Source of the DNA: an uncultured Gemmatimonadales bacterium
Lineage (GTDB): Bacteria; Gemmatimonadota; Gemmatimonadetes; Longimicrobiales; RSA9
Direction of reading: 5' to 3'
Assembly (NCBI GenBank): GCA_963783305.1
Contig: CAWAMW010000001.1
Span: 1-21,392, forward strand
DNA length: 21,392 bases
Numbering within the stretch: the stretch's first letter is position 1; each line of letters starts with the position of its first letter. The position numbers and the translations under genes are program-made. Shown piece after piece: positions 2,028-21,392 of this stretch. The notes beneath the pieces were generated by a model. The model saw nothing but the letters and a program-made list of their open reading frames with translations. It had not been told where the DNA came from and ran no database searches.

Positions 2028-2135
2028 GTATTCGCCGGGTCGCAGGGCAGGACTCCGCCGCCTTCGAAGGGCTCGGGAAGGCGGGGACGCTCGACCAGGG
2101 GATCGCCGTTGGGATTGTTCGCGGGGCGTCGCGAG

Positions 2136-2151: not shown

Positions 2152-2173
2152 GACGACACCCGGGGCACTATCC

Positions 2174-2263: not shown

Positions 2264-2992
2264 AGTATCAGATTCATCAAGACAGCGTTAGCCGCTGCCG
2301 TGCTGGCCACAATGGCCGCACCCGCGGGGCTGCAAGCGGCGGAGGATCCGTTCCCGCTGGGCGGATACTCGCTCATCGGCAGCGGGAACCTCTACGCCAC
2401 CGGTCCTGACGTCTTCATCCAGTTCCTGGGCTTCGCGGCCCAGTACAAGGATGAGATCTCGTTCCGCTATGACCTCACGTATGGCGGGACCAGCTATTAC
2501 GACATTCTCAACAACAAGACGGCCGTGGCGAACACGGTCTGGCGGATCAACGACTTCGTCGAGGTCGACCAGGGCGTCGCTTTCGCGTTCGCCGAGGGTG
2601 ACAATGTCATCTTCTCGCTGTACGTCAGCCCGACCGGCAGTGGGTCGGAGCTGGGCACGGGCGACTTCGGTCAGACGTACTACACGAACAACGGTATGAA
2701 CGCGGATGGCGAGATCCACTCGCGGACCGGCGAGTACATGGGCACGGGTGCATACACGCCCATGGCCGGCGCGATCACCGGGGGTCTGGCTAGAACCGTC
2801 GAGTTCAACCGTCAGGTTGGCTTCGAGGACCGGCTGGCTGGCGACTGGGACTTCAACGACGTGGTCTTCGCCGCGCAGGGCGTCGATGCGCAGGTGCCTG
2901 AGCCAATGTCCATGCTGCTGATGGCCACCGGCCTGTTCGGGATCTGCGGTGTTGCATACCGCCGCAAGGAGACCGACGACAACGAGGCGTAG
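2261..2992 (+). CDS. PEP-CTERM sorting-domain surface protein with a DUF4114-like acidic motif
   Basis: RBS GAGGAG at 2248-2253. Signal peptide MSIRFIKTALAAAVLATMAAPAGLQA. GFEDRLAGDWDFNDVVF motif. C-terminal VPEPMSMLLMATGLFGICGVAYRRK (PEP, TM helix, basic cluster). Confidence 0.93.
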   Translation: MSIRFIKTALAAAVLATMAAPAGLQAAEDPFPLGGYSLIGSGNLYATGPDVFIQFLGFAAQYKDEISFRYDLTYGGTSYYDILNNKTAVANTVWRINDFVEVDQGVAFAFAEGDNVIFSLYVSPTGSGSELGTGDFGQTYYTNNGMNADGEIHSRTGEYMGTGAYTPMAGAITGGLARTVEFNRQVGFEDRLAGDWDFNDVVFAAQGVDAQVPEPMSMLLMATGLFGICGVAYRRKETDDNEA

Positions 2993-3028
2993 TCGGTCTC
3001 GTCCGTCTGGATCCTCCAGAATGATCCG

Positions 3029-3064
3029 GAATACGGCCCCGCGCTTCGGTGCGGGGCCGTATTC
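3029..3064. terminator. Strong hairpin between convergent genes; probable bidirectional terminator
   Basis: GAATACGGCCCCGCGC-TTCG-GTGCGGGGCCGTATTC: 16-bp stem (one G-U) with a C(UUCG)G tetraloop. It abuts the stop codon of the minus-strand GT. U-tracts are short. Confidence 0.75.
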
Positions 3065-5482: not shown

Positions 5483-5546
5483 GGCCCGAATATCCAGTAG
5501 CGAGTGGCGAGTCCGCAAGTCGATGAGTTGCAGCCCGGGAGCGGCG

Positions 5547-6497
5547 GTGAGCAAGCGAAAGAACCTGTTCGTTTTCGGAAGCCCGCGGAGCGGCACCACG
5601 TGGATCCAGCTGCTTCTAGACCAGCACGAAGCGGTCGTTACGGCTCCGGAGACGCAGATCTTCTCCTTCTATCTGAGCCGTTTTCGGAGCCAGTGGCAGG
5701 AGGAGATCAATGGCGAGCAGCACAACGCTCAGGGCGGCGGTGGGCTGAGTCAGCTGCTGAACGAAGAGGAGTTCCGGCAGCTCTGCCGGTTGAACGCCTC
5801 CTTCGTGCTGGACCGGATCGCCGCGCGCGACCCGGAGGCGACGGTGGTCGTCGAGAAGAGTCCCATGCATGCGGTTCACGCCGGCTTCATACATTCCATT
5901 TTTCCTGAGGCCTATTTCCTTCACGTGCTGCGCGACCCTCGAGACACCGTTGCATCGCTCCTGTCCGCGGGGCGGAGCTGGGGCCGACACTGGGCACCGT
6001 CTCACCCCGTCGACGCGGCGCGCATGTGGCGGCGTCACGTCGTGAAGGGACGGGAGATCGCGGGCACAGAGGCGCGCTACATGGAAGTCCGGTATGAGCA
6101 TCTCAAGCGCCAGCCGGAACAGACACTCGGCGGTGTCCTGTCGTGGCTGGGGCTCTCGGCCGATGAACATGATGTGGCGCGGTTCGTAGAAGCGTGCCGG
6201 TTGCAACGGCTTCAGAAAACGGAGGAAAAGAGTGCGGCGAATTGGCCCATGCCGAGTCGCAAAGTACCTGCCGGCTTCTTTCGGAAAGGCGAGGTCGGCG
6301 GCTGGCGGAGCGATCTCACGGCGGCCGAAGCGAGAATCGTCGAGGCCATCGCCGGATCGATCATGGAGGATGCTGGCTATGAGCGACAAATGAATGGAGG
6401 AACTCGGGCGACGGCGCGGATCCGGCTGCACGACACGCTGTCCCGCGTCCGCGAGAGCGTAGACTGGCAGCTCCAGCGATTGCTTCGAAAGGTCTGA
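5547..6497 (+). CDS. PAPS-dependent sulfotransferase
   Basis: GTG 5547 follows GGGAG. 5'-PSB motif FVFGSPRSGTTW, EKSP, 3'-PB motif RDPRDTVAS, VRYEHL, and C-terminal FFRKGEVGGW. Confidence 0.92.
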   Translation: MSKRKNLFVFGSPRSGTTWIQLLLDQHEAVVTAPETQIFSFYLSRFRSQWQEEINGEQHNAQGGGGLSQLLNEEEFRQLCRLNASFVLDRIAARDPEATVVVEKSPMHAVHAGFIHSIFPEAYFLHVLRDPRDTVASLLSAGRSWGRHWAPSHPVDAARMWRRHVVKGREIAGTEARYMEVRYEHLKRQPEQTLGGVLSWLGLSADEHDVARFVEACRLQRLQKTEEKSAANWPMPSRKVPAGFFRKGEVGGWRSDLTAAEARIVEAIAGSIMEDAGYERQMNGGTRATARIRLHDTLSRVRESVDWQLQRLLRKV

Positions 6498-7645
6498 TGC
6501 CTGCTCCTGGCAACCTTCTATGTGTGGCGAACTTTCCGACCAATGCGGGATATGCGTGGGAGTTCATAGAGGGCCTCTATGCCGGTCTCGCTGATGACCT
6601 CCACCGGTTCGGCGTGCGGACATGGGTGGCGTACCCGCGCGTCGACGGTCCGCCCCGGACGCTCGCCCACAGCGCCGCCGAGCCACTCGAACTGCGAGTG
6701 GACTACGGCTCGCCTCGGGGACTCGCAGCGCTCGTGCGGGCGGTCCGAGCCCGCGACATCCGCACCATCTATCTGACGGATCGGGCAGCGTGGCACCCCG
6801 GATACGCGGTGCTGCGCGGGGCCGGCGTCCGCACCATCATTTCCCATGACCACACGTCGGGCGACCGCACGCGCCCAACCGGGCTCAAACGGGCGCTCAA
6901 GGCCACTCTCAGGAGGTTTCGCCCGGCCCTCGCCGACAAGGTATTGGCCGTGAGCGAGTACGTGGCCCAGCGGAAGGTCGAGGTGGACCTCGTCGACCCG
7001 ACGCGCGTGCGTGTCCTGTGGAACTCCGTAGCAATACCGGAGGTGGTCAACCGCGCGGCGCTCCGGGAGAGCTTCGGGATCGGCGCAGCCCGGCCGATCG
7101 TTGCAGGAGCCTCCCGGGTGGCGGAGTACAAGGGGATCCAGTATCTGATGGAGGCGTTCGACCGGGTGTGGCGTGGGCGCGATCCCCGTCCCATCCTCGT
7201 CTACTTCGGTGACGGCCCCTTCATGCCCGAACTCCAGAACCGGATGAAGCGCCTCGCCTGCCGCGAGGACATCATCCTCGCCGGGTATCGACCTGAAGCC
7301 GCCGACCTCCTGGCTGGCGCCGACGTCTGCGTCGTGCCATCCACGTGGCAGGAGGCGTTCGGGCTGGCCGCCTTGGAACCAGCCGCCCGCGGCGTCCCGG
7401 TCATAGGCAGTCGGGTGGGCGGGATCCCGGAGGTGATCGAGGACGGAGTCACAGGGCTGCTGGTCGAGCCGGCGGACGTGGACGGCCTGGCCGCAGCGAT
7501 GGTCGAGCTGCTCGACCACCCCGAACGCCGGATGGAGATGGGGCGAGCTGGACGACGTCTCGCGCAGGAGCGGTTCGCTCAAGCTGATCAGCTGGCTCGC
7601 CTATGTACGCTGGTCCGCCAGGAGATGGGTCTGGGTGCCACGTGA
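6497..7645 (+). CDS. Glycosyltransferase family 4
   Basis: TGATG coupling to the sulfotransferase; motifs AVSE, SRVAEYKG, GDGP, ADVCVVPSTWQEAFGLAALE and GSRVGGIPEVIEDGVTGLLV. Confidence 0.93.
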   Translation: MPAPGNLLCVANFPTNAGYAWEFIEGLYAGLADDLHRFGVRTWVAYPRVDGPPRTLAHSAAEPLELRVDYGSPRGLAALVRAVRARDIRTIYLTDRAAWHPGYAVLRGAGVRTIISHDHTSGDRTRPTGLKRALKATLRRFRPALADKVLAVSEYVAQRKVEVDLVDPTRVRVLWNSVAIPEVVNRAALRESFGIGAARPIVAGASRVAEYKGIQYLMEAFDRVWRGRDPRPILVYFGDGPFMPELQNRMKRLACREDIILAGYRPEAADLLAGADVCVVPSTWQEAFGLAALEPAARGVPVIGSRVGGIPEVIEDGVTGLLVEPADVDGLAAAMVELLDHPERRMEMGRAGRRLAQERFAQADQLARLCTLVRQEMGLGAT

Positions 7646-7647
7646 GC

Positions 7648-8542
7648 ATGACCGGGCGGAAGCTGGCGAAGTCGTTCGTGGAGAGCGCCCTCGCCGCCAG
7701 CGGTGTTCCCGCGGTGACGCGGCGGCTGCGACGAGACCGGGCGGCGATCCTCGCCTATCACAACGTGGTCCCCGATCATGAGGCTGGCCGCGGAGACGCG
7801 AGTCTGCACCTGCCGCTGTCCCGTTTCCTCGCCCAGCTCGACGCGCTGCGAGAGACCCATGACTTCGTGGACCTGCCCACCGCCATGGCTGGCGGGGGCG
7901 ACCGCGATCCGCGCCACCGTGACGTTCGACGATGCCTACCGCGGAGCCGTCAACCTCGCGCTGCCCGAGCTGCGCAAGCGGGGGATCCCCGCCACCGTGT
8001 TCGTCTGCCCGGGGCTGCTCGACGAGGCCGGGCTCTGGTGGGACGAGACCGCGGAAGCCGGGCGCCTCACGCCTGCCGTGCGGGCGCGCGCGATGCACGA
8101 GCACCGCGGTGAGCTGGATGCGGTGCGCGAATGGGCCTTCGGACGGGAGCCGCCGCCGGCGCTCCCTCACAATTTCGGCGTTGCGTCGGAGGCGGAGCTC
8201 CTGGACCAGGTGCGGGACGGGATCGCCGTGGGGGGGCACGCGTGGGCCCACGCCTGTCTCCCATCTCTCGAAAGTACCGCCCTCCGTGTGGACCTCGGGC
8301 GGACACTGGAATGGCTGAGGTCCTCCCCCGGTCCGACCGTACCCTGGCTGGCGCTGCCCTACGGCGAGGGCACCCCCGAAGTGGCGGCCGCGGCGCTGGA
8401 TGCCGGGTACGACGGCGTCCTCGAGATCCGGGGCGGCCTGTGCGCCTTCCCGGCCGACCCGGCGGCGATCCCGCGGATCAACGTGCCGGCGGGGATGTCC
8501 AGCCGCGGCCTGGTCCTCCGGGCCAGCGGTGTGTGGAAGTGA
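7648..8542 (+). CDS. Polysaccharide deacetylase (NodB/CE4 family); frameshift near 7912
   Basis: Frame 1 reads MTGRKLAK...AILAYHNV...FLAQLDALRE. Frame 2 reads TVTFDDAY...ALPELRKRGIPATVFV...GGHAWAH...LALPYG...IPRINV. Together they form one CE4 domain. Confidence 0.85.
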
Positions 8543-9708
8543 AAGGGGTGGTGCTGGTAACTGACGGGGAGCAGCGGGCGGCGCTGGCCACCATCCGGTC
8601 GCTGGGTCGCGCGGGCTACCGCTGCATCGTCTCCAGCGCCAGCGGCCGATCGCTGGCCGGGGCGTCTCGCCACAGCCAGCGGGAAGAGCGGGTGCCCGAC
8701 CCGGCGAGCGCGCCCGGGGAGCACGCGGCGGCGGTCCGGGAGCTGGTGGCGGCGGAGGGAGTGGGGCTGGTGATCCCCATCTCCGAGCCGTCCATCCTGT
8801 CGCTGCTGCCGGCGCGCGACGGGATCCCCGCCGCGATCCCCTTCCCCGCCCTCGCCACGTTCCAGGCCATCTGCGACAAGGGCCGCGTGCTGCGGGAGGC
8901 CGCCGAAGTCGGGATCCGGGTGCCGGGACAGGTGGAGGTGCGCTCGGCGGAAGAGGGTCGGGACATCGAACTGGACCTCCCGCTCGTCCTCAAGCCCGGC
9001 CGCTCCGTCTACACCGCGCCCGACGGGACCCGTGCCAAGGTGGGGGTGCGCTGGGCACGGAGCCGCGCCGAGCTGCGGGCGGCGCTGGAAGCCTACCCGC
9101 CCGCCGCGTACCCGATCCTGGCCCAGGAGGCCATCGAGGGCCCGGGGGTCGGGGTGTTCGTGCTGCTCCATGAGGGGCGCCTGGTGGCCCGCTTCTCTCA
9201 TCGGCGACTGCGCGAGAAGCCGCCCAGCGGGGGCGTGAGCGTGCTGCGCCAGAGCGAGCCCATGGACCCGGCGCTGCTCGACAGGAGCCTGGCGCTCCTC
9301 GAACGGTTCCGGTGGTCGGGCGTGGCCATGGTGGAGTACAAGCTGGACCGGAGGACGGGCGAGGCGTACCTCATGGAGATCAACGGTCGGCTCTGGGGGT
9401 CGCTCCAGCTGGCCATCGACGCCGGCGTCGACTTCCCGCGGCTGCTGGCGGCCGTTACCTTCGGGAACGCCGTCGAGCCGGTCGAGACGTACCGGTTCAC
9501 CCGGAGCCGCTGGTTCTGGGGCGACGTGGACCACGTGGCCGCCGTCTGGCGGGATGCGAGCGCGAGCTGGAGCGAGCGTCTCGGCTCGCTCGGCGGCTGG
9601 CTCCGCTCGTTCGGACCCGGCCACCGGAGCGAGGTGTTCCGCTGGAGCGACCCGCGACCCTTCGCGCGCGAGAGTCTGCGCTGGCTTCAGGACGCAACCC
9701 ACCGTTGA
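8539..9708 (+). CDS. ATP-grasp (carboxylate-amine ligase-like) protein
   Basis: GTGA overlap with the deacetylase; VLVTDGEQRAALATIRSLGRAG, CDK, PLVLKP, LAQEAIEGPG, HRRLREKPPSGGVS, GVAMVEYK and LMEINGRLWGS. Confidence 0.9.
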   Translation: MKGVVLVTDGEQRAALATIRSLGRAGYRCIVSSASGRSLAGASRHSQREERVPDPASAPGEHAAAVRELVAAEGVGLVIPISEPSILSLLPARDGIPAAIPFPALATFQAICDKGRVLREAAEVGIRVPGQVEVRSAEEGRDIELDLPLVLKPGRSVYTAPDGTRAKVGVRWARSRAELRAALEAYPPAAYPILAQEAIEGPGVGVFVLLHEGRLVARFSHRRLREKPPSGGVSVLRQSEPMDPALLDRSLALLERFRWSGVAMVEYKLDRRTGEAYLMEINGRLWGSLQLAIDAGVDFPRLLAAVTFGNAVEPVETYRFTRSRWFWGDVDHVAAVWRDASASWSERLGSLGGWLRSFGPGHRSEVFRWSDPRPFARESLRWLQDATHR

Positions 9709-9710
9709 AC

Positions 9711-11056
9711 ATGGCTTCGATGTCACAGCCGCGGCACGACCAGGCGGTGCCGGCAATGCTTCCGGGTGCGTCCCCGGGCGATCTGGAAGTTCCTCCGGAC
9801 GCAGCCGGCTTCCTTCTGGCTGATGAACTTCTATCTCTTCCTCGAATATGTTCGTCCGCAGACTATCTGGCCGTGGCTCGACGTGATCCCGTGGGCGCAG
9901 ACCACTCTGATACTGGCCACGGTCTCCTTCTTCCTGGAGGGGAAAACGTTCCGGCTGCGTACCGCCGCGGGCCCGCTCCTCATGGGCTTCTCGGCCATCG
10001 TCGCACTCTCCTCCTTCACCGCCCTCGATCCCAGCTATGCCATCGCCCGAATGGGAGCTCTTCTACTCCTGGATCCTGATCTACCTGCTGATCACGAACA
10101 CGATCACGACGGAGAAGCGATTCTTCGTTTTTCTCCTGGCGTTCCTGCTCTACTCGTTCAAGATGTCGCAGCACGGGTTCAGGGTGTGGGCCACCAGAGG
10201 ATTCGGATTCGCGGGCTGGGGCCTTGCCGGTCCAGGAGGGTGGTTCCAGAACTCGGGCGAGCTGGCAATTCAGATGTGCATCTTCCTGCCCCTGTCCGTC
10301 GAATTCGTGCTGGCGCTGCGCCCCCACATGGGCCGGTGGACCCGGTGGCTGTTCTACTTCGTTCCCGTGACAGCCCTCTCCACCATCGTGGCCTCTTCAT
10401 CCAGAGGGGGCCTGGTGGGCGCGGCGGCCCTGGGCGCATGGTGGGTGGCTCGATCGAAGCAGCGAGTACGCGTCCTCGTCGCTGTGCTGCTCGTCAGCGG
10501 CCTGACCTGGGCGGTGGTCCCGCCTGAGCAAAAGACCCGGTTCAGCGAGGCCGGAGAGGACGACGATTCTGTCACGCGAATCGAGCGTTGGAAGGCGGGG
10601 GTCGCCCTCGCCAACCAGTATCCGGTGCTCGGAATCGGCTACAAGAACTGGGGGCCCTATTTCGGCGGCTGGCTTTCCCACAACATTTTCATCGAGGCGA
10701 TGGCGGAGCTCGGCTACACAGGGCTGCTCTCGTTCCTCTCCCTCATCACGGCCACGTTCTGGATCAATGCCCGCACCCGCAAGCTGCTGAAGGGCGCCCG
10801 CACCTCCAGCAGCTTCATGGAACACATGGCACATGGTCTGGATGGTGCCCTGATCGGGTACATGGCGAGCGGCTTCTTCGTCACCGTTCTCTACTACCCG
10901 TTCTTCTGGATCAACCTGGCCATGACCGTGTCGCTGCATTCCGCGGCTCGGCACGAGGTGCGGCGACTGAGGCGAGAATTCGCCAGCCCGTCCCGGGCAG
11001 CGCCCCTGGGTCGCTCGTCTTCCTGGGGTACCCCTGGCCTCGCGGCTCCTCGATGA
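9711..11056 (+). CDS. O-antigen ligase / Wzy_C family membrane protein, resembling exosortase-associated putative O-glycosylation ligases; frameshifts near 9760 and 10048
   Basis: YLFLEYVRPQ, many TM helices, NSGELA, SSSRGGLVG, RIERWKAG, PVLGIGYKNW and SHNIFIEAMAELGYTG. The start (9711, 9720 or 9766) is uncertain. Confidence 0.85.
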
Positions 11057-12237
11057 AGATGGAACGGGGGCGGGTCCTGCACCTGATCGATACAACGGGG
11101 CCGGGCGGCGCCGAGACGGTCTTCCTCCAGCTGGCGGCGGGGCTGCGGCAGAGAGGGTGGGATTCACGGGCGGTAGTGGTCGGGCCCGGATGGGTGCTCG
11201 ACAGCATCCGGGAGATGCAGGTGGGTGTGGACATCGTGGAGACCCGGGGTCGCCTCGACATCGGATACCTCCTGTCGCTCCGGGACCTTGTCCGACAGCA
11301 CCGGATCCAGCTGATACACGCGCACCTCTTCAGCCCGGCCGTCTACGCGAGCGCCATCGGGGCGATCACCGGAACACCGGTGATCGCCACCTTCCATGGG
11401 TCTTCCGATACCCGTGCGGCGGGGGTCGGCGGCCGACTTCGATATCGGCTGCTGGAACGGAAGGCGCGCGTAGTATGCGTATCGGAGACCCTTCGCAGCG
11501 AGCTGCTCGCGCGACAGCGGCTGTCGGATGGCACAGTCAGCGTGATCCACAATGGAGTGGACGTGGACCTGTTCGCGGCCGCCGACGGAAGCGCTGTGCG
11601 GGAGGAGCTCGGCGCTGCCGACGACACCGTTCTCGTCGGCGCGCTCGGCAACGTCCGACCGGCCAAGGACTACGCCACTCTCATCCGTGCGGCCGCCAGG
11701 ATGGCACCGGACGAGCGCTTCCGCTTCGTCATCGCCGGCGAGCGAACGCAGCCGCTCTATGGCCAGCTGCTGGAGCTGCGGGACGGACTGGGCCTGGAGA
11801 GTCGAGTGCGGTTCATCGGCTTCCGCGATGATGTACCCGCTCTCCTCGCCGCGCTGGACATCCTCGTGATCAGCTCGAGCTCGGAAGGGTTCTCGCTCGC
11901 AGCGCTCCAGGCCATGGCGGCGGGTACCCCCGTCGTTGCCACCCGCTCGGGCGGCCCCGAAGGCATCATCACGCACGAGGAGGACGGTCTGCTCGTCGCG
12001 GCTAGATCCCCTGCCGACATCGCCGCGGCTGTCCAGCGGCTGGCCGACGATCCGGAGCTAGCGAGCGGGCTCAGGGGCAGGGCGCGGGAGACGGTGCGGA
12101 ATCAGTTCTCTCTGGCTGCCATGCTGGACAGGTACGAAAGGCTCTACACGGAGTCGCTCTCGACCGGCGACAGCCAGTCCTCCGCGACTCCCCTGGCACC
12201 CATCTCCGAGAGGAGTGAATCCAGCTCCTCGATCTGA
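11053..12237 (+). CDS. Glycosyltransferase family 4
   Basis: ATGA overlap; VLHLIDTTGPGGAE, IHAH, VIHNGVD, GNVRPAKD, DILVISSSSEGFSLAALQAMAAGTPVVAT. Confidence 0.93.
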   Translation: MKMERGRVLHLIDTTGPGGAETVFLQLAAGLRQRGWDSRAVVVGPGWVLDSIREMQVGVDIVETRGRLDIGYLLSLRDLVRQHRIQLIHAHLFSPAVYASAIGAITGTPVIATFHGSSDTRAAGVGGRLRYRLLERKARVVCVSETLRSELLARQRLSDGTVSVIHNGVDVDLFAAADGSAVREELGAADDTVLVGALGNVRPAKDYATLIRAAARMAPDERFRFVIAGERTQPLYGQLLELRDGLGLESRVRFIGFRDDVPALLAALDILVISSSSEGFSLAALQAMAAGTPVVATRSGGPEGIITHEEDGLLVAARSPADIAAAVQRLADDPELASGLRGRARETVRNQFSLAAMLDRYERLYTESLSTGDSQSSATPLAPISERSESSSSI

Positions 12238-13037
12238 GGACGAAAACGGTCCTGCAGGTGCGACCTGAGGCGCGGCGTGACGGGACGCTCCGACGGGTCC
12301 CGGTTGGACCTCCTGCTGAGGCCGGTCGTCACCAGTCGTCCGTCGACCCCGATATGATCCCTGACCTCCATCAGGAACCGCTCAGGCGCAGCGGCGAGGG
12401 AATCGTACCGAAAGACGCGAAAGTTCTCCCCGAACGCGTCGCGCCAGAGGCGAACCATCCGCGGGTAGTCGTTTCTCAATCTGTATCCTGCCCAATCGAC
12501 CTCCCGGAGGATGTCATCGAGGGCCGCGTTGCTTATCCGTTCGTCCTTCCAGCGGTACATCATCTTCACCGCGGACCACAGCCGTTCCACTGGATCGCGG
12601 ACCAGCAGCAGGATGCGGCAGTCCGGCTTCAGAACGCGTCGCGCGAACGCTACGCCCCGATCATCGAGCGTGGAGTAGGCGGGCGTGATATCGCCCGCCT
12701 TCCGGCCCTCCACGACATCCGCTGGAAACAGGGAATAGTACCAGGTGTTCGACAGCGCACCATGATGATGGAAGCGCCGGATCCACCGGAGCGTCCTCAG
12801 CCCCGGCCGCTCGATCAGCGGCCGGTACTTCTCCCTGAATCCCGGCGGAACCCGCTCTTCCACGCCCAGGAGCTCTTCGGCCGGGCACACCCGATTGAAG
12901 AAGTGGAGCTCCTTCACAGGCGGCAGCCATACACCTGGCTGGAGAGCCAGGTTGTCATAGAGCCAGGTGGTTCCCGCCTTCTGGGCCCCAATGCAGACGA
13001 AGTCCGGCCCGGATCTATCACCTCTGCCCGTCGTCAA
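12144..13037 (-). CDS. PAPS-dependent sulfotransferase
   Basis: TTG 13037 overlaps the upstream stop (TTGA). Motifs PDFVCIGAQKAGTTWLY, KELHFF, GDITPAYS and RDPVERLWS. Confidence 0.9.
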   Translation of the reverse strand: MTTGRGDRSGPDFVCIGAQKAGTTWLYDNLALQPGVWLPPVKELHFFNRVCPAEELLGVEERVPPGFREKYRPLIERPGLRTLRWIRRFHHHGALSNTWYYSLFPADVVEGRKAGDITPAYSTLDDRGVAFARRVLKPDCRILLLVRDPVERLWSAVKMMYRWKDERISNAALDDILREVDWAGYRLRNDYPRMVRLWRDAFGENFRVFRYDSLAAAPERFLMEVRDHIGVDGRLVTTGLSRRSNRDPSERPVTPRLRSHLQDRFRPQIEELDSLLSEMGARGVAEDWLSPVESDSV

Positions 13038-14722
13038 AACCGGTGCCCGCCCGCTGCGGCAGCGATGGTGGCCGAGGCGAACGCGACTGGAACATTGGTG
13101 GGCCCAAGATTCTTCTCCCACCGGTTCCAGGACTCACGCGTGACAAAATCAAGGCGGGGATCACCCGAGGTGTAGTCAGTCGCGTTGAAGTCCGTTCTTT
13201 TCATTGCGGCGGGCCAATCACATCTGCCAACGATTCGGCGTCCTCGAAGGCGGGCCGCTATGCCCGCGCGCAGCTCGGTCCTGATTCGCTCCCCCTTCGG
13301 CTCCGGGTTGAAGGGACGTTTTCCGCGCCTGCGCAGGCGAGCAGTGATTGCGCCATCATACGCACGCTGACCGGCCAGTGCATCGGCTGACGCAGTGAGC
13401 GCTGATGCGATCAGCTGCCGATGCAGGAAGGGATAGGAAATGGGCAGAAACCAATCGCACAAGTCGAACATCATCGAGATCCAGCGTGCCTGCCGCCATT
13501 GAAGATCGAGGATCATCAAGGCGCTAGTGGGTCCTATGTCCTTCGCGAGTTTCTCGAAAAGTCCGAGAACGTGGTTTTTTACGAATTGGCTCTCTTCAGC
13601 GTAGACCTGCCCGAGGAGCGGGTCACGCTGGCTCGGCAACAGAATACTGAGGGCGTACTCATGATCTGGCCGCCCGGTCGGACCGGAGTGGGCACCAGTC
13701 AATGCGTCCCCAAGAAAACCTACCACAGCTAGGCTTGCCTTCTCTCTGACCCATTCCACGCCCGCAATGTTGTGCCCTGTCTGAAGTCCCGAGCAACCGG
13801 CGTGTAGTCCAATCACCTGAGGCCGGTATGAGTTCAGAGTCCAGTCTCCATATGGCACCTTCAGCGCTTTCAAGCCCAGCTTCTTCGCCCGACTCCTCCC
13901 TCTGACAGCGTCCACGGAATACGACTCACCGTAGGTAGCCGACGTATTCGGATACTCAGATTCTGCGATAGCGACTGCCGTGGAATCGCGTCCGCCTGAG
14001 TACATCAGAATGCTGGTAGCGTCGTAAGACTCACGCTGGGCGCTGTGATCCATCATCGTCCAGAACGTTGACGGATTGAGCGGAGGGGCGTCCGTGCTCA
14101 TAAGCTCCTGGAGCCACTGATCTCTGGAACCCGCCAGCCGTGGACCATTCAGATCAGCGATCAGGCGCATCCCGGCGGGCAGTCGGTAGACACCCTCGAA
14201 ATGTGTCTCATCGAACACCTGCGACCTGCCGAGCAACTGAGCCGCCACACCAACCTGGTTCAGCCGTGGCTGCCAAGGCAGAAGCTGGAGAAGTAGCCCA
14301 AGATGCGAACTGAAGTATGTGATCCTGTCAGAAGCTGCGTAGAAGACGGCGCCGGCGCCGATCCAGTCCGTAAAGAGTTCGACGGCACCTCCTGCACGTA
14401 CGCGCACACCCGAGTACTTCCCGTCGAAGCTGGAATACGATGGGGTCTCGCCAAACTTCTGATTCCAGATGAGCCTGTCCTGAAAGAAGGGTCTGCCCGT
14501 GAACAGAAGTAGACCAGCCGGGCTGATCTCGGCACCGTTCCCGTGCTGCGTACGTTCAACCACCGTCAATCTGGTCGAACCGACCTCCATGCACCGAATG
14601 AACATAGTTGGAGAGGGGCAGATCAACTGGGAGAGTGGGGCGCGGTGGTCCTCCAAAAGCGGAGCGGTCACTCCGGCATAGGCCTGTACTGACAAGGGGG
14701 CAAGCACGTTGTCAGATGTCAT
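13034..14722 (-). CDS. Asparagine synthetase (AsnB)-like protein with a degenerate glutaminase domain
   Basis: TDWIGAGAVFY...FSS and FEGVYRLPAG match the AsnB N-domain. YSGGRDST is a PP-loop-like motif (cf. LSGGLDS). GFLGDALTG and YPFL are also present. GAAGG precedes ATG 14722. There is no N-terminal catalytic Cys. Confidence 0.7.
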   Translation of the reverse strand: MTSDNVLAPLSVQAYAGVTAPLLEDHRAPLSQLICPSPTMFIRCMEVGSTRLTVVERTQHGNGAEISPAGLLLFTGRPFFQDRLIWNQKFGETPSYSSFDGKYSGVRVRAGGAVELFTDWIGAGAVFYAASDRITYFSSHLGLLLQLLPWQPRLNQVGVAAQLLGRSQVFDETHFEGVYRLPAGMRLIADLNGPRLAGSRDQWLQELMSTDAPPLNPSTFWTMMDHSAQRESYDATSILMYSGGRDSTAVAIAESEYPNTSATYGESYSVDAVRGRSRAKKLGLKALKVPYGDWTLNSYRPQVIGLHAGCSGLQTGHNIAGVEWVREKASLAVVGFLGDALTGAHSGPTGRPDHEYALSILLPSQRDPLLGQVYAEESQFVKNHVLGLFEKLAKDIGPTSALMILDLQWRQARWISMMFDLCDWFLPISYPFLHRQLIASALTASADALAGQRAYDGAITARLRRRGKRPFNPEPKGERIRTELRAGIAARLRGRRIVGRCDWPAAMKRTDFNATDYTSGDPRLDFVTRESWNRWEKNLGPTNVPVAFASATIAAAAGGHRF

Positions 14723-14779
14723 TGAGTACCTTCGGGGCAGCAGTGTTCACTTGGTTCATTCGGAAGATTTCAGGCACCT

Positions 14780-15961
14780 TCAGACTTCCTTTTTCCCCTC
14801 GTAATGCAAGCGCCGGTACGTGTCAACGTACATGTGTCCTGTCACCGAAATGCTGAAATGGCTCTGCACCCGTTCTGCGGCCGCCTTGCCGATCCGTTCC
14901 GCCCGCCGCTCATCGCCGGGGCCGAAAGCGGCTTCCAGGGACTCGAGGAAAGTGGACGCGTCGCGTGGCTCGAAGAGGAACCCTGACTCGCCGTGCTCGA
15001 TGACGTCTTCAGCGCCGCCCGTGCGAGTGGCGATGGGGACGAGGCCCGAGGCCATGGCCTCGATCAGTGCGTTGGGCAGGCCTTCACTCGTGGACGGCAG
15101 CACATAGCCATCGGATGCCTGCAGATAGCGATGGACGGCGGGGTCGCGCTCGCGCAGGATGATGCGGTCCCGCACGGGGCTGCGGGCGACCTCCTCGAGC
15201 AGGTGCCTCATGTACCCGGTCTGGCTGTCTTCGCGGGCCGGACCGCCGACCAGCACCAGCGTCAGATCCAGCCGAGCCAGGGGCTCCGCCAGGACCGGGA
15301 TCAGCCAGTCCAGTGACTTGCGGGCGATGAACACCCCGTGGTAGACCAGGATCCTGCCCCGGGAGGGGAGCGAGAGATCCTTTCGCAGCCGTTCCTTCGT
15401 CTCGGCGGCAACAGGATGGTCAATGTTCGTGTCCACCCCGTTGGGGATGCGATGAAGCCTGGATACAGGGAGGCCACTGAGCCCGAACTCCTCTTCCAGG
15501 CGCCTGCTGAGGACCACAAATGCTCCCGCACCCTGCAGCATTCGCCGCTGGACCCTCCCGCTCCTGGACGTCCCAAGCCCGGCGAACTCGCCGGAAATGC
15601 TCGAACGTACCAGTACCGGCTTCCCGAGCAGTCGCGCCATGGGCACCGCGGCGGACTGGCTGAACTCTGCCGAGTGGACATGCAGGACATCGAACCGCCG
15701 ACGCAGCGCCAGAAGCCGTGCACCGACCCGGCTCCAGTACGCGAGCAGTTGCGGATAGCTCGGATCGGGAGGGGGCGGGCGCACCCGGTGCAGGGGGAAG
15801 CCCTCGATCTGCTCATCGCGCCCGCTGTTCGGCGTGCCATCGGTGAGGAAAACGACGTCCCAGCCCTCCGCCTTCACCACGCGGGCCAGCGTCAGCGCCT
15901 GCTTCCCAGCGCCGCTGGGGTCGGGCGGCATGAACCGCTGGTAAATGCAAACCGACGGCAT
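14780..15961 (-). CDS. Glycosyltransferase family 4
   Basis: SGAGKQA, DVLHVH, IPNGVD, DGYVLPSTSEGLPNALIEAMASGLVPIATRTGG and GESGFLF. Confidence 0.93.
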   Translation of the reverse strand: MPSVCIYQRFMPPDPSGAGKQALTLARVVKAEGWDVVFLTDGTPNSGRDEQIEGFPLHRVRPPPPDPSYPQLLAYWSRVGARLLALRRRFDVLHVHSAEFSQSAAVPMARLLGKPVLVRSSISGEFAGLGTSRSGRVQRRMLQGAGAFVVLSRRLEEEFGLSGLPVSRLHRIPNGVDTNIDHPVAAETKERLRKDLSLPSRGRILVYHGVFIARKSLDWLIPVLAEPLARLDLTLVLVGGPAREDSQTGYMRHLLEEVARSPVRDRIILRERDPAVHRYLQASDGYVLPSTSEGLPNALIEAMASGLVPIATRTGGAEDVIEHGESGFLFEPRDASTFLESLEAAFGPGDERRAERIGKAAAERVQSHFSISVTGHMYVDTYRRLHYEGKKEV

Positions 15962-15986
15962 CAGTCGGCGACCATGGGAGAACGCG

Positions 15987-16874
15987 TCATGACGTGTCCC
16001 GCGGGTGCCCCGGACCCTCGAGGGTTGTGGTCCACTCTTCGAAGGGGCGTCCGAGCAGCGTTTCGAGCCGGCGAACCGACTCCCGCAGGTGGGGCCGGAT
16101 CTCCTCGATCACGTCGTCCAGCGCTTCCCTCGGCATGGGATCCGCGGAGCGGTAGGCCAGGCGTTGCCCGATCCTCTTGACCGCCCGTGGAATGGCCGGC
16201 GAGACTCCGCCCCAGAGCGAGACCGTGAAAATCGGTCCAGCCAGCCGTGCCCGCGGACGCGAGTGAAGGTCTCCGGCCTGGCGTTCTGCTTCTCGAGGCG
16301 AAGGTCGGCGCCGCCGGGTGGAAGCCTCAGCCACTCCAGTATGTTCCCCGTGATGCGCTCGGGCTGCCGACCAGCTCCTCGAACGTCGCGGTGAAGATGG
16401 CGTCCATGCCGAAAGTCCGGATGAACGGCTCGAGCTGCATGGCGTAGTCGCTCACCGCCAGGTACTCCGGAACCTCCCGAAGCGCTTCGCGAAGACCCGA
16501 TGCTCCTGGTGCTTCCGAACATTGTGCCAGTAGCTGCTGAGCGTGCGTTCCACCGGGTCCCGCATCAGATAGATGAAGCGCGGCTCTTCCTCCACAAAAG
16601 ACGCGATTCGCTCAGGCACCCCTTCGTACAGCGGCCGCTTGGTGTAGTGCGTGCTCGATTCACCACGGTAGCGAGCCGTTCCGGCTCCGGCAAAGAGACT
16701 CAGGTACCACTCGGTGTCCGCGGGATAGTAGCTCAACTCCGGCACGAAGAAGCCCGGCTCCTTCGGGTCGGAGAGGAAAATGTCGGGGTGCTGGGCCAGC
16801 AGGTGGTGCAGCGAAGTCGTCCCCGATTTCGCCGCTCCGATGATGAACAGATTGGGACCCATTGGCTCGGCCAT
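15987..16874 (-). CDS. PAPS-dependent sulfotransferase; frameshifts near 16497, 16368 and 16220
   Basis: PNLFIIGAAKSGTTSL, KEPGFF, GESSTHY and RDPVERTLSSYWH. It continues in shifted frames as YLAVSDYAMQLEPFIRTFG...TFEELV, QPERITGNILEWL...N and ...RLETLLGRPFEEW. The true stop could instead be the TGA at 15963-15961, coupled to the next GT. Confidence 0.85.
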
Positions 16875-17260
16875 CCCGCAGCAACACCCGTATTCGAGAG
16901 CTTGGATTCGTGTGTCGGGTCGACATTGAAAACCCGACCACGAACGTCGCTTCGTCTCCGAGCGACGTCAACAGCATGGGAGTGCCTGCGGGACCAGAGA
17001 GGACGGACACGGCGGCCGTTCCGGCCTTGTTCCGGACCGGGGCGCACGCCATCTTGTCTCGCTGTAACGAGAGCCTGCATGAGCAGAGCGACCTTCCTCG
17101 ATAGCCCTTCAGATCGTTTCGTACCCCGCCCGCTATTGCCGCATGAGACCTCGAAATGCTGCTCATCACGGTCACGTGGTGCCCGGCATGCGCCCCTACT
17201 GTGGAGACCGGTGCTTCCCGGTTCACATTCGGGTGTGCCTGAGCGTCCGGAGCGCCCGTG

Positions 17261-18629
17261 ATGGCAAATCTTCTCCCGCGAGCGATCTTCCACGCGGCCA
17301 CCCGGCTGAGGGGCGAGGGCAACTGGAAGCAGCACCTCGGCGAGCTGAGACGTCTGGAGCGCGCCGGTACAGTCGAGGTCGAGGCCGACCAGGCCCGCAG
17401 GCTCGATCGGATGCTGACGTTCGCCACCGAGAGCGTCGAGCAGTATCGAGGGCGTTCACCGGGCTCCCGGCGGGGTCTGCTCCAGGACGCACGTCTCCGC
17501 CTGTCTTCGTTTCCGCTGCTCGAGAAGCGGACCATACAGCAGACTCCCGAGCGCCTGCACGGCGACCTGAGAGCACGGACCATCGTCAAGTCCACGGGCG
17601 GCTCCACCGGTGAGCCCGTGAAGCTGCTGAAGACCGCCGACGGCGTCGCCCTGGAGAGGGCCGCCAGCTGGCTTGGGCCTCGGCTGGTTCGGCATCGGGG
17701 TGGGCGACCCCGCGGTTCGCTTCTGGGGCACGCCGCTCACGACCTCCCGTCGCTTCCGGTTCCGCCTGGCCGATCTGGCCATGAACCGGATCCGCCTCTC
17801 CGCCTTCGACATCGACGAGGCCGACCTGGAGCGCTACTACGACCGCATACAGCGGTTCCAGCCGGCCTGGTTCTACGGGTACGCGTCGCTGATCGATCTC
17901 ATGGCGGAGTGGATCGAGGAGACGGGCCGCGATGGCACCGCGCTGGGCCTGCGCGCCATCGTGCCCACGTCCGAGCCGCTGAGTGCGGCGCAGCGGGAGC
18001 GGATCACCCGGGTCTTCGGTGCGCCCGTCCAGAACGAGTACGGTTGCGGCGAGGTGGGGGCGATGGCCTACGAGTGCGAGCAGGGCATGCTCCACGTCAT
18101 GACGAGCTCGGTCCTGGTGGAGGTCCTGAACGACGATGGCTCGCCGGCCGCTCCCGGGGAGACGGGGGAGGTGGTGGTGACCGACCTCAACAACTACGCG
18201 ATGCCCCTCATCCGCTACCGGATGGGCGATCGTGCGGTGCCGGGACGGCCCTGCCCGTGCGGCCGGCCGTACCCCACCCTCGAGAAGGTGGTCGGGCGAA
18301 TCCACGATGTCGTGTTTACGCCGGCGGGCCGGCGCTGGCACGGGGAGAAGATCGACTACCTCATGTCGTCGATCCACCAGGAGCTGTTCCCGTTCCAGCG
18401 GTACCAGGTGGTGCAGAAGGAGCCGGACCTCCTGGAGGTGAGGCTCGTGGCGGACGCGCCGATCCCCGAGGCCGCCAGCGAGCGGATCTCCGCGTACGTC
18501 CGGGAGCGGCTGGACGGCATGCGGACGGAGGTCCGGCGGGTGGAGCGGATCGAGCGGAGCGCCAGCGGCAAGCTGCGTCTGGTACGGAACGACGTGCAGG
18601 GTCGACCGGAGCAGGAGGAGGATGCTTGA
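17261..18629 (+). CDS. Phenylacetate-CoA ligase family (CapK-like) adenylate-forming enzyme; frameshift near 17675
   Basis: FPLLEK and STGGSTGEP (ANL P-loop), then GYAS, TSEPL, NEYGCGE, GEVVVTDLNNYAMPLIRYRMGD, GRIHD, YQVVQ and SASGKLR. Confidence 0.88.
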
Positions 18630-19876
18630 CGGAGCGCGGTCGCGAGCGGCTCCTGTTTCTGGCCCAGACGCTCCCGTACCCGCCCGACGGCGGCGTGCAG
18701 ATCCGGACCTACAACGTCCTCCGACTCCTCGCCCGGCGCTTCGACGTCACCGCCCTCTGCTTCTACCGCCGCGCCTCGCACCCCACGCCGGAGCACGTGG
18801 AGCGGAGCCTGAAGGGGCTTTCGGAGCTCGTGGAGGTGGAGGCGTTCCCGATCCCGCAGGAATACTCGCGACGGCAGCTGCTCCTCGATCACGCCGTGAG
18901 CAGCGTCACGGGCCGGGTGTACACGGTTCGGAGCTATCGCTCCACCGCCTATCGGGAGCGGATCCAGCAGCTGTTGAACGACCGTTCGATCCGCCTGGTG
19001 CACGTCGACAGCCTGGACCTCTCCGATTACCTGCCGATGGTATCGGGGATTCCCACCGTCTGCACCCATCACAACGTGGAGTCGGCGCTGCTCCGGCGCC
19101 GGGCGGAGCAGGAGTCCAGCTCCCTCCGCAGGGCGTACCTCCGGTACCAGAGCCGGCTCATGCGGCGGGAGGAAGCGCGGTGGGCTCCCCGCGTGGATCT
19201 CAACGCCACGGTGTCGCCCGCTGACGCGGAGCTGCTCCGGGACATAGCCCCTGGCGCCCGCACGCGCGTCGTCCCGAACGGTGTGGACACGCGACTGTTC
19301 CAGCCGGCTCCAGGGGGTGAGGACGGGATCGTGTTCGTGGGCGGGTACACCTGGTTCCCGAACCGGGATGCCCTGGGCTACTTCGCCGAGGAGATCCTTC
19401 CGCTGATCCGGAGGAAGGACGCGGACGTCCCGGTCCGCTGGATCGGCCGGGCTCCCGCCGCCGTCCGCGAGGAGTACCGGGAGCACCACGCCATCGAGCT
19501 GACGGGCTACGTCGATTCCATCCAGCCCCTGGTGAGCCGCGCCGCGTGCTACGTGGTCCCCCTCCGGGTCGGGGGTGGCACTCGCCTCAAGATCCTGGAC
19601 GCGTGGGCCATGGGGAAGGCGGTGGTCAGCACCAGCGTCGGCTGCGAGGGGCTGGATGCCCGCGATGGCGAGAACATCCTGATTCGGGACGAGCCGGCCG
19701 GCTTCGCCGACGCCGTCCACCGGGTGCTGCGGGATCCAGCGCTGCGCGAGCGGCTCGGCAACGCAGCCAGGAGGACCGTGGAGACCACGTACGACTGGGA
19801 CGTCATCGGTCGGACCATGATCCCCGCCTACGAAGAGCTGCTCGACCCCGCCGCCGCGGAGCGCGCCATTTCGTAG
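18626..19876 (+). CDS. Glycosyltransferase family 4, of the type often associated with PEP-CTERM EPS loci
   Basis: TTG 18626 overlaps the upstream stop. Motifs LLFLAQTLPYPPDGGVQIRTYNVLR, HHNVES, VVPNGVD, FVGGYTWFPNRDA and VVPLRVGGGTRLKILDAWAMGKAVVSTSVGCEG. Confidence 0.92.
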   Translation: MTERGRERLLFLAQTLPYPPDGGVQIRTYNVLRLLARRFDVTALCFYRRASHPTPEHVERSLKGLSELVEVEAFPIPQEYSRRQLLLDHAVSSVTGRVYTVRSYRSTAYRERIQQLLNDRSIRLVHVDSLDLSDYLPMVSGIPTVCTHHNVESALLRRRAEQESSSLRRAYLRYQSRLMRREEARWAPRVDLNATVSPADAELLRDIAPGARTRVVPNGVDTRLFQPAPGGEDGIVFVGGYTWFPNRDALGYFAEEILPLIRRKDADVPVRWIGRAPAAVREEYREHHAIELTGYVDSIQPLVSRAACYVVPLRVGGGTRLKILDAWAMGKAVVSTSVGCEGLDARDGENILIRDEPAGFADAVHRVLRDPALRERLGNAARRTVETTYDWDVIGRTMIPAYEELLDPAAAERAIS

Positions 19877-19988
19877 CGGGACCCCGAAATAAGTATCCCC
19901 CCCCGGCCGCGTGGCCGCCGATCGATTTCTTTAGCTTTCCACCGTTTTTCGCGCCGTTACGCCACATCCGGCCTCATCTGCCCCCTCC

Positions 19989-20003
19989 GAGCACCTGCCT
20001 TGC
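19989..20003 (+). promoter_or_regulatory. Possible degenerate sigma-54 promoter upstream of the riboswitch
   Basis: GAGCACCTGCCTTGC has the correct GCAC-N5-TTGC spacing but AG instead of GG at -25/-24. It would start transcription about 35 nt before the riboswitch. Confidence 0.3.
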
Positions 20004-20048
20004 CATAGACCTGCGCCGTCAGTTGTAGACAGCCGCTGACGAAATGCA

Positions 20049-20148
20049 GGATCGCTGCTCAGAGCGAAGCCGTCCGAAAGGCGGTGGCGCAGAGCTACGG
20101 GGCTACCGCGATACCGATCGCCATGCTCGCCGGGCCGCCAGTGAATCC
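20049..20148 (+). ncRNA. GEMM-I (c-di-GMP-I family) riboswitch with A at position 20; candidate 3',3'-cGAMP sensor
   Basis: P1: TCGCTG 20052-57 with CAGTGA 20139-44, extended by GGA/TCC. J1/2: CTCAGA. P2: GC-GAA-GCCGTCC-GAAA-GGCGGT-GGC-GC. J2/3: AGA. P3: GCTACGGGGCTACC-GCGAT-ACCG-ATCGC-CATGCTCGCCGGGC, with a receptor-like CTAC/CATG segment. The 3' GCC supplies the C92/C93 equivalents. It lies in a 5' leader. Confidence 0.85.
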
Positions 20149-20210
20149 ACCACCCCGTGGGGACACCAGGCGGCCGTCATAGCATTCAGCGAGTATCAAG
20201 GAGCTGGTCG

Positions 20211-21392
20211 ATGTCGACCCCGGCGATCAAGCGAGCCAAGCAGGATCTCTTCGTTCCCGCGTCCGCCATCCTGGCGCTCTTTCTCATCCTCGGCGGCTGT
20301 GACGCCGGGTCGTTCGTGGAGCCGGAGACCGAGACCGCCAGCTGGCAGATCCAGGCCAGCGCCTACGACCACGTCTTCACCGCCCTCGAGCAGACCGAGC
20401 GATTCACCGCCACCGCCCAGGACAAGGCCGGGAACCCCATCCCCAACGCCGTCTTCAAGTGGACCACCTCGGACGCAGCCGTGGCCACGGTGGGAGCGGA
20501 CGGCTCGGTGACGGCGGTCGGCGCCGGCGAGGCGGCCATCGAGGTCACCTCGGAATGCTGCTCCGGCTCCGACGTCATCCTCATCACCGTGGCCCAGGTC
20601 CCGGTGTCCATGAGCGTCTCGCCGGTGGAGGCGGAGGTCGGTATCGGAGACACGATCCAGCTGGTCACGGAGGCCCGCGACGCGAACGGCCATCCGATCT
20701 CCGGCGCCGAGTACGCAACCAGCGACTCCGCCATTGCCACGATTTCTGCCGAGGGGGTGCTGCGGGGGCTGGAGGCGGGCTCCGTCACCGCCTCCGCGGA
20801 GATCCGCGGCAAGGTGGTGAAGTCCAGCATCAAGGTGAAGGGGACGAAGACCGAGGGCACGGTCGCGTCCGTGCAGGCGAGCACGGCCAGCCACGCCTTT
20901 ACGGCTCTGGGCCAGACGGTGGAGCTGAGTGCCACGGCCCACGACGGTTCCGGGGGCGCTGGCGGGCGTTACCTTCCAGTGGACCAGCACCGACACCAAC
21001 ATCGCCACTGTGAGCTCCATGGGACTCGTCACCGCCAAGGCCGTGGGGACGGCGAACATCATCGTCGCCGCGCTCTGCTGCACCGCCTCTGACACGGTCG
21101 CCATTACCGTGGAGCAGGTGCCGGCCGCCGTGTCCGTGTCTCCGTCCTCCGCTCGGCCTCGAAGTGGGGCAGACCCAGGAGCTGACCGTTCAGGTCAAGG
21201 ACGCCAATGGCCACTCGGCCGCCGCCGACATCACCTTCGCCAGCAGCAACGGCTCGGTGGTCTCCGTTTCGGCCTCGGGATCGTGAAGGGGCAGGCCGCC
21301 GGAACCGCCACGGTTACGGTGAAGGCAGGCCCGGTCACCGGCTCATCCCTCGTGACCGTCGAGGACACTGAGATCCTCACCGGCGAGGGCGG
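20211..21392 (+). CDS. Lipoprotein with tandem bacterial Ig-like (Big_2) repeats; runs off the window; frameshifts near 20958, 21150 and 21280
   Basis: RBS AAGGAG. Signal peptide ends in lipobox LGGC. Four repeats of the pattern WTTSDAAVATV..DG.VTA...G.A.I, which continue in shifted frames (FQWTSTDTNIATVSSMGLVTAKAVGTANI; FASSNGSVVSVSASG/IVKGQAAGTATVTV). Confidence 0.85.

Follow-up and report, generated by a model that had tools for sequence, protein, structure and literature searches.

The subject of this study is a GEMM-I riboswitch in a contig of 21,392 bases (C1) from an uncultured Gemmatimonadales bacterium. This entire contig is referred to as the window; the genome to which it belongs amounts to 4.35 Mb in 17 contigs and is 96% complete. 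The riboswitch lies downstream of an exopolysaccharide (EPS) locus and ahead of a gene for a lipoprotein with Big_2 immunoglobulin (Ig) repeats. It carries A at the position equivalent to G20 of the Vc2 aptamer, and a first-pass annotation, made from the letters, had suggested that it may respond to cGAMP (3',3'-cyclic GMP-AMP). We read the RNA as a functional ON switch with A at position 20 and G at position 48 (A20/G48), which in this strain is most likely driven by cyclic di-GMP (c-di-GMP), i.e., as an A20 aptamer that is bispecific or tolerates c-di-GMP, and we give this reading about an even chance of being correct.

The aptamer and its A20/G48 subclass

Both strands of the window were scanned with cmscan against Rfam 15. 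A single match was returned, RF01051 (c-di-GMP-I), which covered the full model (1-87) and scored 46.6 bits (gathering score 35; E 2e-6); scored against the whole genome, the same match had an E value of 9.6e-8. Model position 11, the counterpart of Vc2 G20, is an unpaired position ahead of a G-C pair; the cmscan alignment has A (20063) there and places the equivalents of C44, A47 and C92 at 20088, 20091 and 20138. The GEMM-I architecture, the A at position 20 and the three other equivalents had been assigned by eye in the first-pass annotation, and all of them agree with the model columns. Thus, the pocket bases A47 and C92 are present, and the canonical G20 is replaced by A. This replacement is a departure from the c-di-GMP pocket and not from the GEMM-I fold, as published A20 variants stay in the family. 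Two further departures from the consensus, which the first-pass annotation did not mention, were found, namely GCGAA for GCAAA (at 20066) and GCAGAGC for GCAAAGC; the latter places G at 20092, i.e., at position 48, directly after the intercalating A47.

The fold was assessed in an alignment (A2) of 32 of the 35 type-1 matches described below; two rows from unpublished genomes (G021 and G024) and one match of 128 nt were dropped. In this alignment, 97.0% of 896 cells paired and 12 of 28 pairs had changed on both sides. None of 500 shuffles scored as high, and slid controls reached 25.7-54.0% paired. P1 (columns 3-7 with 100-104) was paired in 98.1% of cells, with one pair changed on both sides; three of the six P1a pairs showed compensatory changes, and P1b contained eight such pairs in helices 6 and 7. 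A genuine GEMM-I aptamer with A20 is confirmed. Positions 23 and 43 of the type-1 RNAs also co-varied in part (columns 16 and 37; 20066 and 20087 in the window): A/A was found in 20 rows, G/G in seven, including the window, A/G in five and G/A in none.

We then considered how position 20 behaves among relatives. RF01051 was present in 36 of 61 related genomes; the same family accounted for 23 (of 36 genomes), a second family for 12 (of 12) and a third for none (of 12). We retrieved 111 of the 112 listed matches (the remaining one belongs to an unpublished genome and was left out), and 108 were above the cut-off. Positions 20 and 48 were read by offset in full-length matches, and the counts include two matches from the unpublished G021 and G024. 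The combinations were G20/A48 in 53 matches, A20/G48 in 47, C20/A48 in four, A20/A48 in three and A20 with GGA in one; G20/G48 was seen in two sub-threshold matches only. Therefore, G48 accompanied A20 in 47 of 51 A20 matches and in none of the 53 G20 matches above the cut-off. The 47 A20/G48 matches came from 30 genomes, and C-G (C90-G91) preceded C92 in 46 of them. The coupling occurred in two sequence backgrounds. Type 1 (35 matches in both families, the window included) reads CGCUGCUCAG-A-GC[AG]AA ... GCC-AGC, with the short signature CUGCUCAGAGC ... GCAGAGC, whereas type 2 (12 matches, nearly all in one family) otherwise resembles the local G20 RNAs. Judged by its sequence, the window RNA is a member of this conserved A20/G48 subclass. 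In the parts of the literature available to our search, no paper on GEMM-I position 48 was found, and the supplements of the 2015 primary papers may bear on it.

The genome contains two further GEMM-I RNAs. The first, on contig C4 (4801-4889; 47.4 bits), is a second copy of the leader together with the start of the gene, and it likewise carries A20 and G48. The C1 and C4 leaders are near-identical between about 19960 and the start codon, but diverged further upstream, and the neighbours of the C4 copy are also EPS genes (pyruvyl transferase, GT2, GT4 and an AMP-binding protein). The other, at C6:96283-96358, is canonical in both G20 and GCAAAGC and lies ahead of the gene for a subtilase lipoprotein. 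The C4 copy bears on whether the match arose by chance or whether 20063 is really G owing to a base-calling artefact. The contig does contain indel-type errors, and 20063 is known from the assembly letters; however, a sequencing error at this base is unlikely because the C4 copy and all 47 A20/G48 matches from the 30 genomes carry the same A. In addition, a true G at 20063 would combine G20 with G48, a pairing of bases found in 0 of 108 matches above the cut-off, and the E value in the window and the covariation speak against a chance match. We consider this explanation extremely improbable.

Predicted expression platform

Within the 5' leader of the Big_2 gene, the aptamer is in sense orientation, its end being 68 nt from the ATG on the same strand, and a Shine-Dalgarno (SD) sequence, AAGGAG, lies at 20198-20203. 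Big_2 was matched in Pfam on both frame pieces of the gene (E 7.5e-14 and 7.7e-8), which continues past the contig end; together with its lipobox, these matches bear out the Ig-repeat lipoprotein expected at first pass.

The 3' strand of the aptamer, GGCCGCC-A-GUG (20133-20143), is complementary to CAC-CA-GGCGGCC (20164-20175). The resulting anti-aptamer hairpin excludes P1 and the base of P1b, as the shared strand comprises the end of P1b, C92 and the 3' strand of P1. The complementary strand was present in 27 of 35 type-1 leaders, 19 of which had at least four T within the next 8 bases. An intrinsic terminator in the window itself was ruled out because the U tract is absent; that is, two T follow the hairpin in 8 bases and no terminator was called there, in agreement with the first-pass annotation.

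We compared the leader in its ligand-free form and with the aptamer enforced. The ligand-free minimum free energy (MFE) structure (RNAfold, -90.5 kcal/mol) paired 20123-27 with 20181-85, 20118-21 with 20189-92, 20110-14 with 20193-97, 20106-07 with 20200-01 and 20101-04 with 20202-05. In the free fold, GGAG of the SD (20200-20203) had an unpaired probability of 0.02-0.05; with the aptamer enforced, the values for the four bases in order were 0.75, 0.69, 0.97 and 0.12. In a second construct, the SD was unpaired with a probability of 0.05-0.11 in the full leader and 0.91-0.94 when the downstream part was folded alone.

These folds and the comparison with relatives suggest the following mechanism. 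In most relatives, the hairpin with its U tract constitutes an intrinsic terminator, and a ligand-stabilised P1 would prevent the hairpin. In the window copy, in which the U tract is gone, the competing pairing of the ligand-free RNA would extend from the 5' half of P1b to GGAG of the SD, and ligand binding would release the ribosome-binding site and turn translation ON. The strand shared between the relatives' terminator and P1/P1b indicates an ON-switch design like that of pilM (Gmet_0970), in which, according to the available part of the source, terminator and aptamer are mutually exclusive (PMC9262584). Most type-1 relatives keep such a pilM-like terminator (19 of 35 in full form), in contrast to the window copy. 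The first-pass annotation had left the expression platform unclear, and the window RNA is now modelled as most likely an ON switch for the Big_2 lipoprotein of the EPS locus. Two points tell against this model. Sequestration of the SD is an MFE prediction, and an RNAduplex comparison of the 3' half of the aptamer with the downstream 130 nt did not discriminate from 100 dinucleotide shuffles in this GC-rich DNA (z -1.47 for the window; type-1 median -0.94). A sigma-70 scan of 19800-20300 found no promoter, such a scan being uninformative for this phylum.

Table 1. Coordinates of the riboswitch, its predicted leader structures and the neighbouring genes in the window
Feature	Position	Strand	Basis
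GEMM-I aptamer, A20/G48 type 1 subclass	20053-20142	+	cmscan; covariation in 32 subclass members
P1 5' strand CGCUG, paired with CAGUG 20139-20143	20053-20057	+	alignment A2
A at Vc2 position 20 (alpha-base contact)	20063	+	cmscan; C4 copy; 51 of 108 relatives' matches
P1a hairpin, GAAA tetraloop 20076-20079, bulged U 20073	20069-20085	+	cmscan, MFE helices
Junction C44 G45 C46 A47 G48 A49	20088-20093	+	cmscan alignment
P1b hairpin, tetraloop-receptor-like CUAC/CAUG internal loop	20094-20136	+	cmscan alignment
C92 equivalent (model position 83), Watson-Crick partner of the beta guanine	20138	+	invariant in A2
Anti-aptamer hairpin, homologous to relatives' terminator stem, here without U tract	20133-20175	+	MFE helices
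Leader segment predicted to pair with P1b 5' half (20101-20127) when ligand-free; contains the SD	20181-20205	+	RNAfold
Big_2 Ig-repeat lipoprotein gene	20211-21392	+	start ATG 20211, lipobox LILGGC (from translation)
EPS biosynthesis locus	64-19876	.	Pfam: Wzz, Bac_transf priming enzyme, six GT4-type transferases, two sulfotransferases, deacetylase, ATP-grasp, Wzy_C, AMP-binding protein
Sulfotransferase gene	5481-6497	+	Pfam, window open reading frames
Sulfotransferase gene	12144-13121	-	Pfam, window open reading frames

Candidate ligands and the search for a cyclase

The ligand would be a cyclic dinucleotide of the 3',3' type containing a guanine that C92 reads. A20 makes it likely that the A20/G48 subclass binds 3',3'-cGAMP, and cGAMP may well be the ligand of the class, but is a doubtful one in this strain. 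The first-pass annotation had treated A20 as the mark of a cGAMP preference. By analogy with the characterised aptamers, A20 alone predicts that cGAMP can bind and not that it is preferred, because two A20 RNAs bind c-di-GMP more tightly. In the available part of one study (PMC6140456), Vc2 G20A was bispecific, with dissociation constants of 53 nM for c-di-GMP and 120 nM for cGAMP; the natural A20 aptamer Cbe 1-2 of Clostridium beijerinckii bound them at 30 and 463 nM, respectively, and a protonated adenine was described as allowing c-di-GMP into A20 pockets. A cluster-3 A20 aptamer of Desulfobacca acetoxidans gained affinity for cGAMP with a slight loss for c-di-GMP, as far as the accessible text goes (PMC9481103). 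Cbe 1-2 and the Desulfobacca aptamer are natural A20 GEMM-I RNAs outside Geobacter, as is the window RNA. At the other end of the range, selectivity for cGAMP of about 1200-1600-fold is given for A20 RNAs in excerpts of two papers (PMC6456294, PMC8835794).

The window RNA shares features with both groups. It has the Rfam family, the fold, G21-C46, A47 and C92 in common with Vc2, and A20 with G21-C46 in common with Vc2 G20A (PDB 3irw, 3mum and 4yb1, as cited in PMC6140456); unlike Vc2, it has G48, C-G at 90-91 before C92 and a conserved CUGCUCAG in J1/2. With the Geobacter RNAs Gs1761 and pilM, as far as their descriptions were available, it shares A20 (A14 there), a C75/C92 that reads guanine, and the predicted ON logic. 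However, Gs1761 (pgcA) has C15-G40 followed by A41-A42, with A42 among the ligand contacts in the portion seen of its description (PMC6274999), and pilM has U15-G38 (PMC9262584). That is, the Geobacter RNAs pair a pyrimidine at position 21 with G46, in contrast to G21-C46 of the window RNA, and the counterpart of A42 is G48 in the window RNA, a position equivalence that follows from an inferred numbering offset.

We searched for a cGAMP synthase in the genome, as the first-pass annotation had suggested for Hypr-type GGDEF proteins. The Hypr signature is Ser/Thr at the specificity position with GGDEF, and not GGEEF, the motif being exclusive to Ser/Thr enzymes in the part of the eLife 2019 paper available (PMC6456294). 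In Geobacter, the enzyme is the Rec-GGDEF protein GacA with Ser348; the window genome has no Ser-type GGDEF. All 14 of its GGDEF domains, 12 of which have an apparently intact GG[DE]E[FL], carry Asp at the column of PleD D344 and GacA Ser348, and none has Ser, Thr or Asn there. In the relative G052, one of 23 GGDEF domains has Ser, in a GAF-GGDEF protein. With this protein as the query, full-length orthologues were found in 10 of the 61 genomes (47-55% identity, E up to 2e-89), and the remaining best matches had Asp in 18 of 18 cases; this Ser/Asp reading did not include two loci from unpublished genomes. A tblastn search of the window genome with three Ser-type orthologues returned Asp-type paralogues only, at up to 40% identity. 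In five congeners (L150, L152, L153, L154 and L155), the Ser-type gene lies directly after tRNA-Lys(UUU). In the window genome, the same tRNA is at C15:164190-164265, and about 200 nt replace the gene of about 1.15 kb (C15:163990-164270). The absence of the GAF-GGDEF gene is real and not an assembly gap, because the syntenic site and both flanks are contiguous on one contig. The lack of a Ser/Thr-type GGDEF, together with the loss of this Hypr-like GAF-GGDEF, makes c-di-GMP the most likely trigger in this strain.

The lost cyclase could also mean that the switch is orphaned or decaying, i.e., that the synthase and the U tract are lost, the gene is broken and the aptamer is an intact relic. The Big_2 gene has at least three frame breaks within 1.18 kb of coding sequence, at short homopolymers near 20955-20965, about 21150 and about 21283 as read from the sequence, so the riboswitch unit could be decaying; in addition, two T follow the hairpin, versus at least four in 19 of the 27 relatives with the hairpin. 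However, other genes of C1 are also broken at homopolymers (7778-9708 and 17258-19876, from overlapping Pfam pieces), as is typical of assembly indels. Because these genes and a gene on C17 (a CD-NTase gene described below) are split likewise, the frame breaks look like assembly indels rather than decay. Moreover, the C1 and C4 leaders stayed near-identical while their upstream regions diverged, which argues for purifying selection. We regard a relic as improbable.

Several observations weigh against c-di-GMP as the trigger and for a dedicated 3',3'-cGAMP riboswitch, the signal for which would come from a CD-NTase, a cyclase that escaped recognition or a gene outside the assembled part of the genome. 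The coupling of A20 with G48 is strict in both backgrounds, and the A20/G48 and G20/A48 classes are strictly separate, yet occur together in 14 genomes. Their regulons also differ. We scanned 107 downstream open reading frames (ORFs) against Pfam, the gene being chosen by a heuristic based on GC content at third codon positions, and Big_1/Big_2 genes followed 16 of 35 type-1 RNAs versus none of the 53 G20/A48 RNAs; ORF calls starting more than 300 nt downstream are especially uncertain. Separate classes with different regulons are expected if there are two different ligands. By analogy with A42 of Gs1761, which is a ligand contact in the accessible description, G48 could sharpen selectivity for adenine. 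Among the other genomes of the same genus, five of six contain the GAF-GGDEF orthologue, and each of the 10 full-length orthologues shows G-S-[QR]VL ... RYGGDEF, i.e., Ser with GGDEF, as expected for Hypr-like enzymes. This enzyme (L143, L150, L152) is likened by its GAF-GGDEF architecture alone to GacB (MXAN_2643), described in a preprint as a cAMP-activated GAF-GGDEF Hypr cyclase of Myxococcus xanthus (bioRxiv 10.1101/600031). Seven of the 10 genomes with the Ser-type orthologue have A20/G48 switches, and on a Nitrospirota chromosome that carries type-1 switches in tandem, two of the GGDEF domains are of the Ser + GGDEF kind (33 read of 37 found). Finally, the window genome does contain a CBASS CD-NTase gene (C17, about 350100-352400, minus strand; locus L034), which matched the PADLOC cyclase PDLC00790 at 76 and 149 bits on two frames, and a synthase may sit in the unassembled 4%.

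These points are countered by others. The window genome lacks the congeners' enzyme on an unbroken contig, and none of the 13 GGDEF domains of G017 (95% complete, five contigs), which has nine GEMM-I matches, three of them type 1, carries Ser or Thr. This query found no orthologue in 23 of the 30 genomes with A20/G48, and three of the 10 genomes with the enzyme have no A20/G48 switch. Of the 30 genomes with A20/G48, seven have the orthologue, as do three of the 31 genomes lacking A20/G48; this co-occurrence is too weak, and the genomes are too closely related, to count either way. The CD-NTase gene, which encodes the sole further candidate synthase in this genome, lies within a CBASS-like defence operon (a TGT-like gene, the CD-NTase and a 2TM effector), and in the assembly a frameshift breaks it into two pieces. 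PF21654 (DncV-like) had no match in this genome, but the control genomes were equally silent and this is not evidence of absence. The pocket differs from those of Gs1761 and pilM, as far as these are described in the accessible text, at 21/46 and, by the inferred offset, at 48, and Vc2 G20A, which has the same G21-C46, is bispecific (PMC6140456, in the part available). Therefore, a dedicated cGAMP riboswitch in this strain is possible but rather doubtful. The first-pass proposal of a cGAMP switch for an adhesin-like protein is borne out in part: the conserved A20 subclass, its own regulon and the Ser + GGDEF enzyme in the genus speak for it; the preference for cGAMP deduced from A20 did not hold up against the bispecific or c-di-GMP-preferring A20 RNAs, the pocket unlike that of Geobacter and the lack of a Ser-type GGDEF in the genome.

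Our preferred reading, a c-di-GMP-driven ON switch in this strain, leaves room for another role of the subclass as a whole. We tentatively suggest, with more doubt than confidence, that the A20/G48 RNAs are a distinct cross-phylum subclass, with the signature CUGCUCAG-A20-GC ... GC-A47-G48-A and then C90-G91-C92, of dedicated sensors of 3',3'-cGAMP or another A-G dinucleotide, built unlike the Geobacter type; this specificity would stem from the two substitutions at the alpha site. If this were true, a pathway in Gemmatimonadota would lead from cAMP through a GAF-Hypr-GGDEF to cGAMP, the riboswitch and the Ig-repeat lipoproteins of EPS loci, and the window strain would be a natural mutant in which the writer is lost and two readers are kept; its genome has one G20 and two A20 GEMM-I RNAs and 14 Asp-type GGDEF domains, and lost the Ser-type cyclase of its congeners. 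If the RNAs are cGAMP-selective, riboswitch-based cGAMP signalling would reach beyond the relatives of Geobacter to Gemmatimonadota, Nitrospirota and Acidobacteriota and would be tied to exopolysaccharide-associated surface proteins, and A20/G48 would offer a second way, independent of the first, to recognise adenine in the GEMM-I fold. If c-di-GMP is bound equally well, the subclass would represent natural tuning of affinity or threshold inside one signalling system and a warning for automated annotation. The widespread use of A20 as shorthand for a cGAMP riboswitch needs care. For Gemmatimonadota, no paper dealing with Hypr GGDEFs or with GEMM-I switches was found in the parts of the literature available to our search, apart from one co-mention of Gemmatimonadetes (PMC12448109).

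Genomic context and distribution

A Pfam scan of 48 window ORFs placed an EPS locus upstream of the riboswitch (Table 1). The first-pass annotation had inferred a sulfated-EPS locus and a host that is probably not a deltaproteobacterium; two sulfotransferase genes among those for Wzz, the priming transferase, GT4 enzymes and Wzy_C support the former, and related records place the host in Gemmatimonadota. Three versions of the same EPS locus with 79-95% identity were found in the assembly, at 1-18810 of the window, at C2:936801-945508 (contig end) and at C3:4897-21536; these represent either paralogous loci or variants from different strains in one bin. GC content is lower in the short contigs (0.65-0.67 versus 0.69).

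Regarding the regulons, an earlier heuristic for the downstream ORF was dropped, as it gave many spurious GC-rich frames. Among the 16 Big_1/Big_2 proteins behind type-1 RNAs, one matched only weakly, and several have polysaccharide-lyase or beta-helix ends. The 53 G20/A48 RNAs were followed by PAS-GGDEF-EAL, GH26, GH6 and GH16 proteins, M23 and S8 peptidases, DUF4382, curlin and SpaA-type proteins. Behind the 12 type-2 RNAs were EPS priming transferases, a PilZ-bearing cellulose-synthase-like GT2, GGDEF-EAL, a GAF kinase and subtilases. A conserved protein of about 420 aa without a Pfam match (N-terminus MFESLL..LP..WR) followed type-1 RNAs in four genomes (L023, L027, L045 and L056), two of which belong to the same genus as the window genome.

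An exact-pattern scan for the type-1 signature, with one genome per species, returned at least 122 loci. Among the loci listed, 73 were of Gemmatimonadota type, 21 of Nitrospirota type, 11 of Acidobacteriota type, four from Deltaproteobacteria or Desulfuromonadales, eight from other phyla and five unclassified, indicating that the signature, as a sequence pattern, is not peculiar to the lineage of the window. One Desulfuromonadales genome had 19 GEMM-I matches, including one type-1 RNA (L311) and two Gs1761-like A20 RNAs (L308 and L310) with the flipped C-C...G-G pair and AAA, as in Gs1761. Because both occur in one genome, the two A20 designs are distinct and able to co-exist.

A second Nitrospirota genome (G063) had atypical Ser cases, one Ser with GGEEF and one Ser with GGDDF, which were left unweighed. 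Asn was found at the specificity position in two Nitrospirota genomes with type-1 switches (L331 in G062 and L372 in G063). A Manganitrophaceae chromosome carries type-1 pairs in tandem about 185 nt apart; tandem GEMM-I RNAs occur in the Nitrospirota records L231, L247 and L219, and further tandem loci are L011, L010, L024 and L266-L268. At L010 (G013), a type-1 aptamer lies upstream of a G20 aptamer before a single gene. Finally, the four C20 matches (L084, L086, L089 and L053) read C-GCACC ... GCAAAGC, and two of them lie ahead of Big_2 genes.

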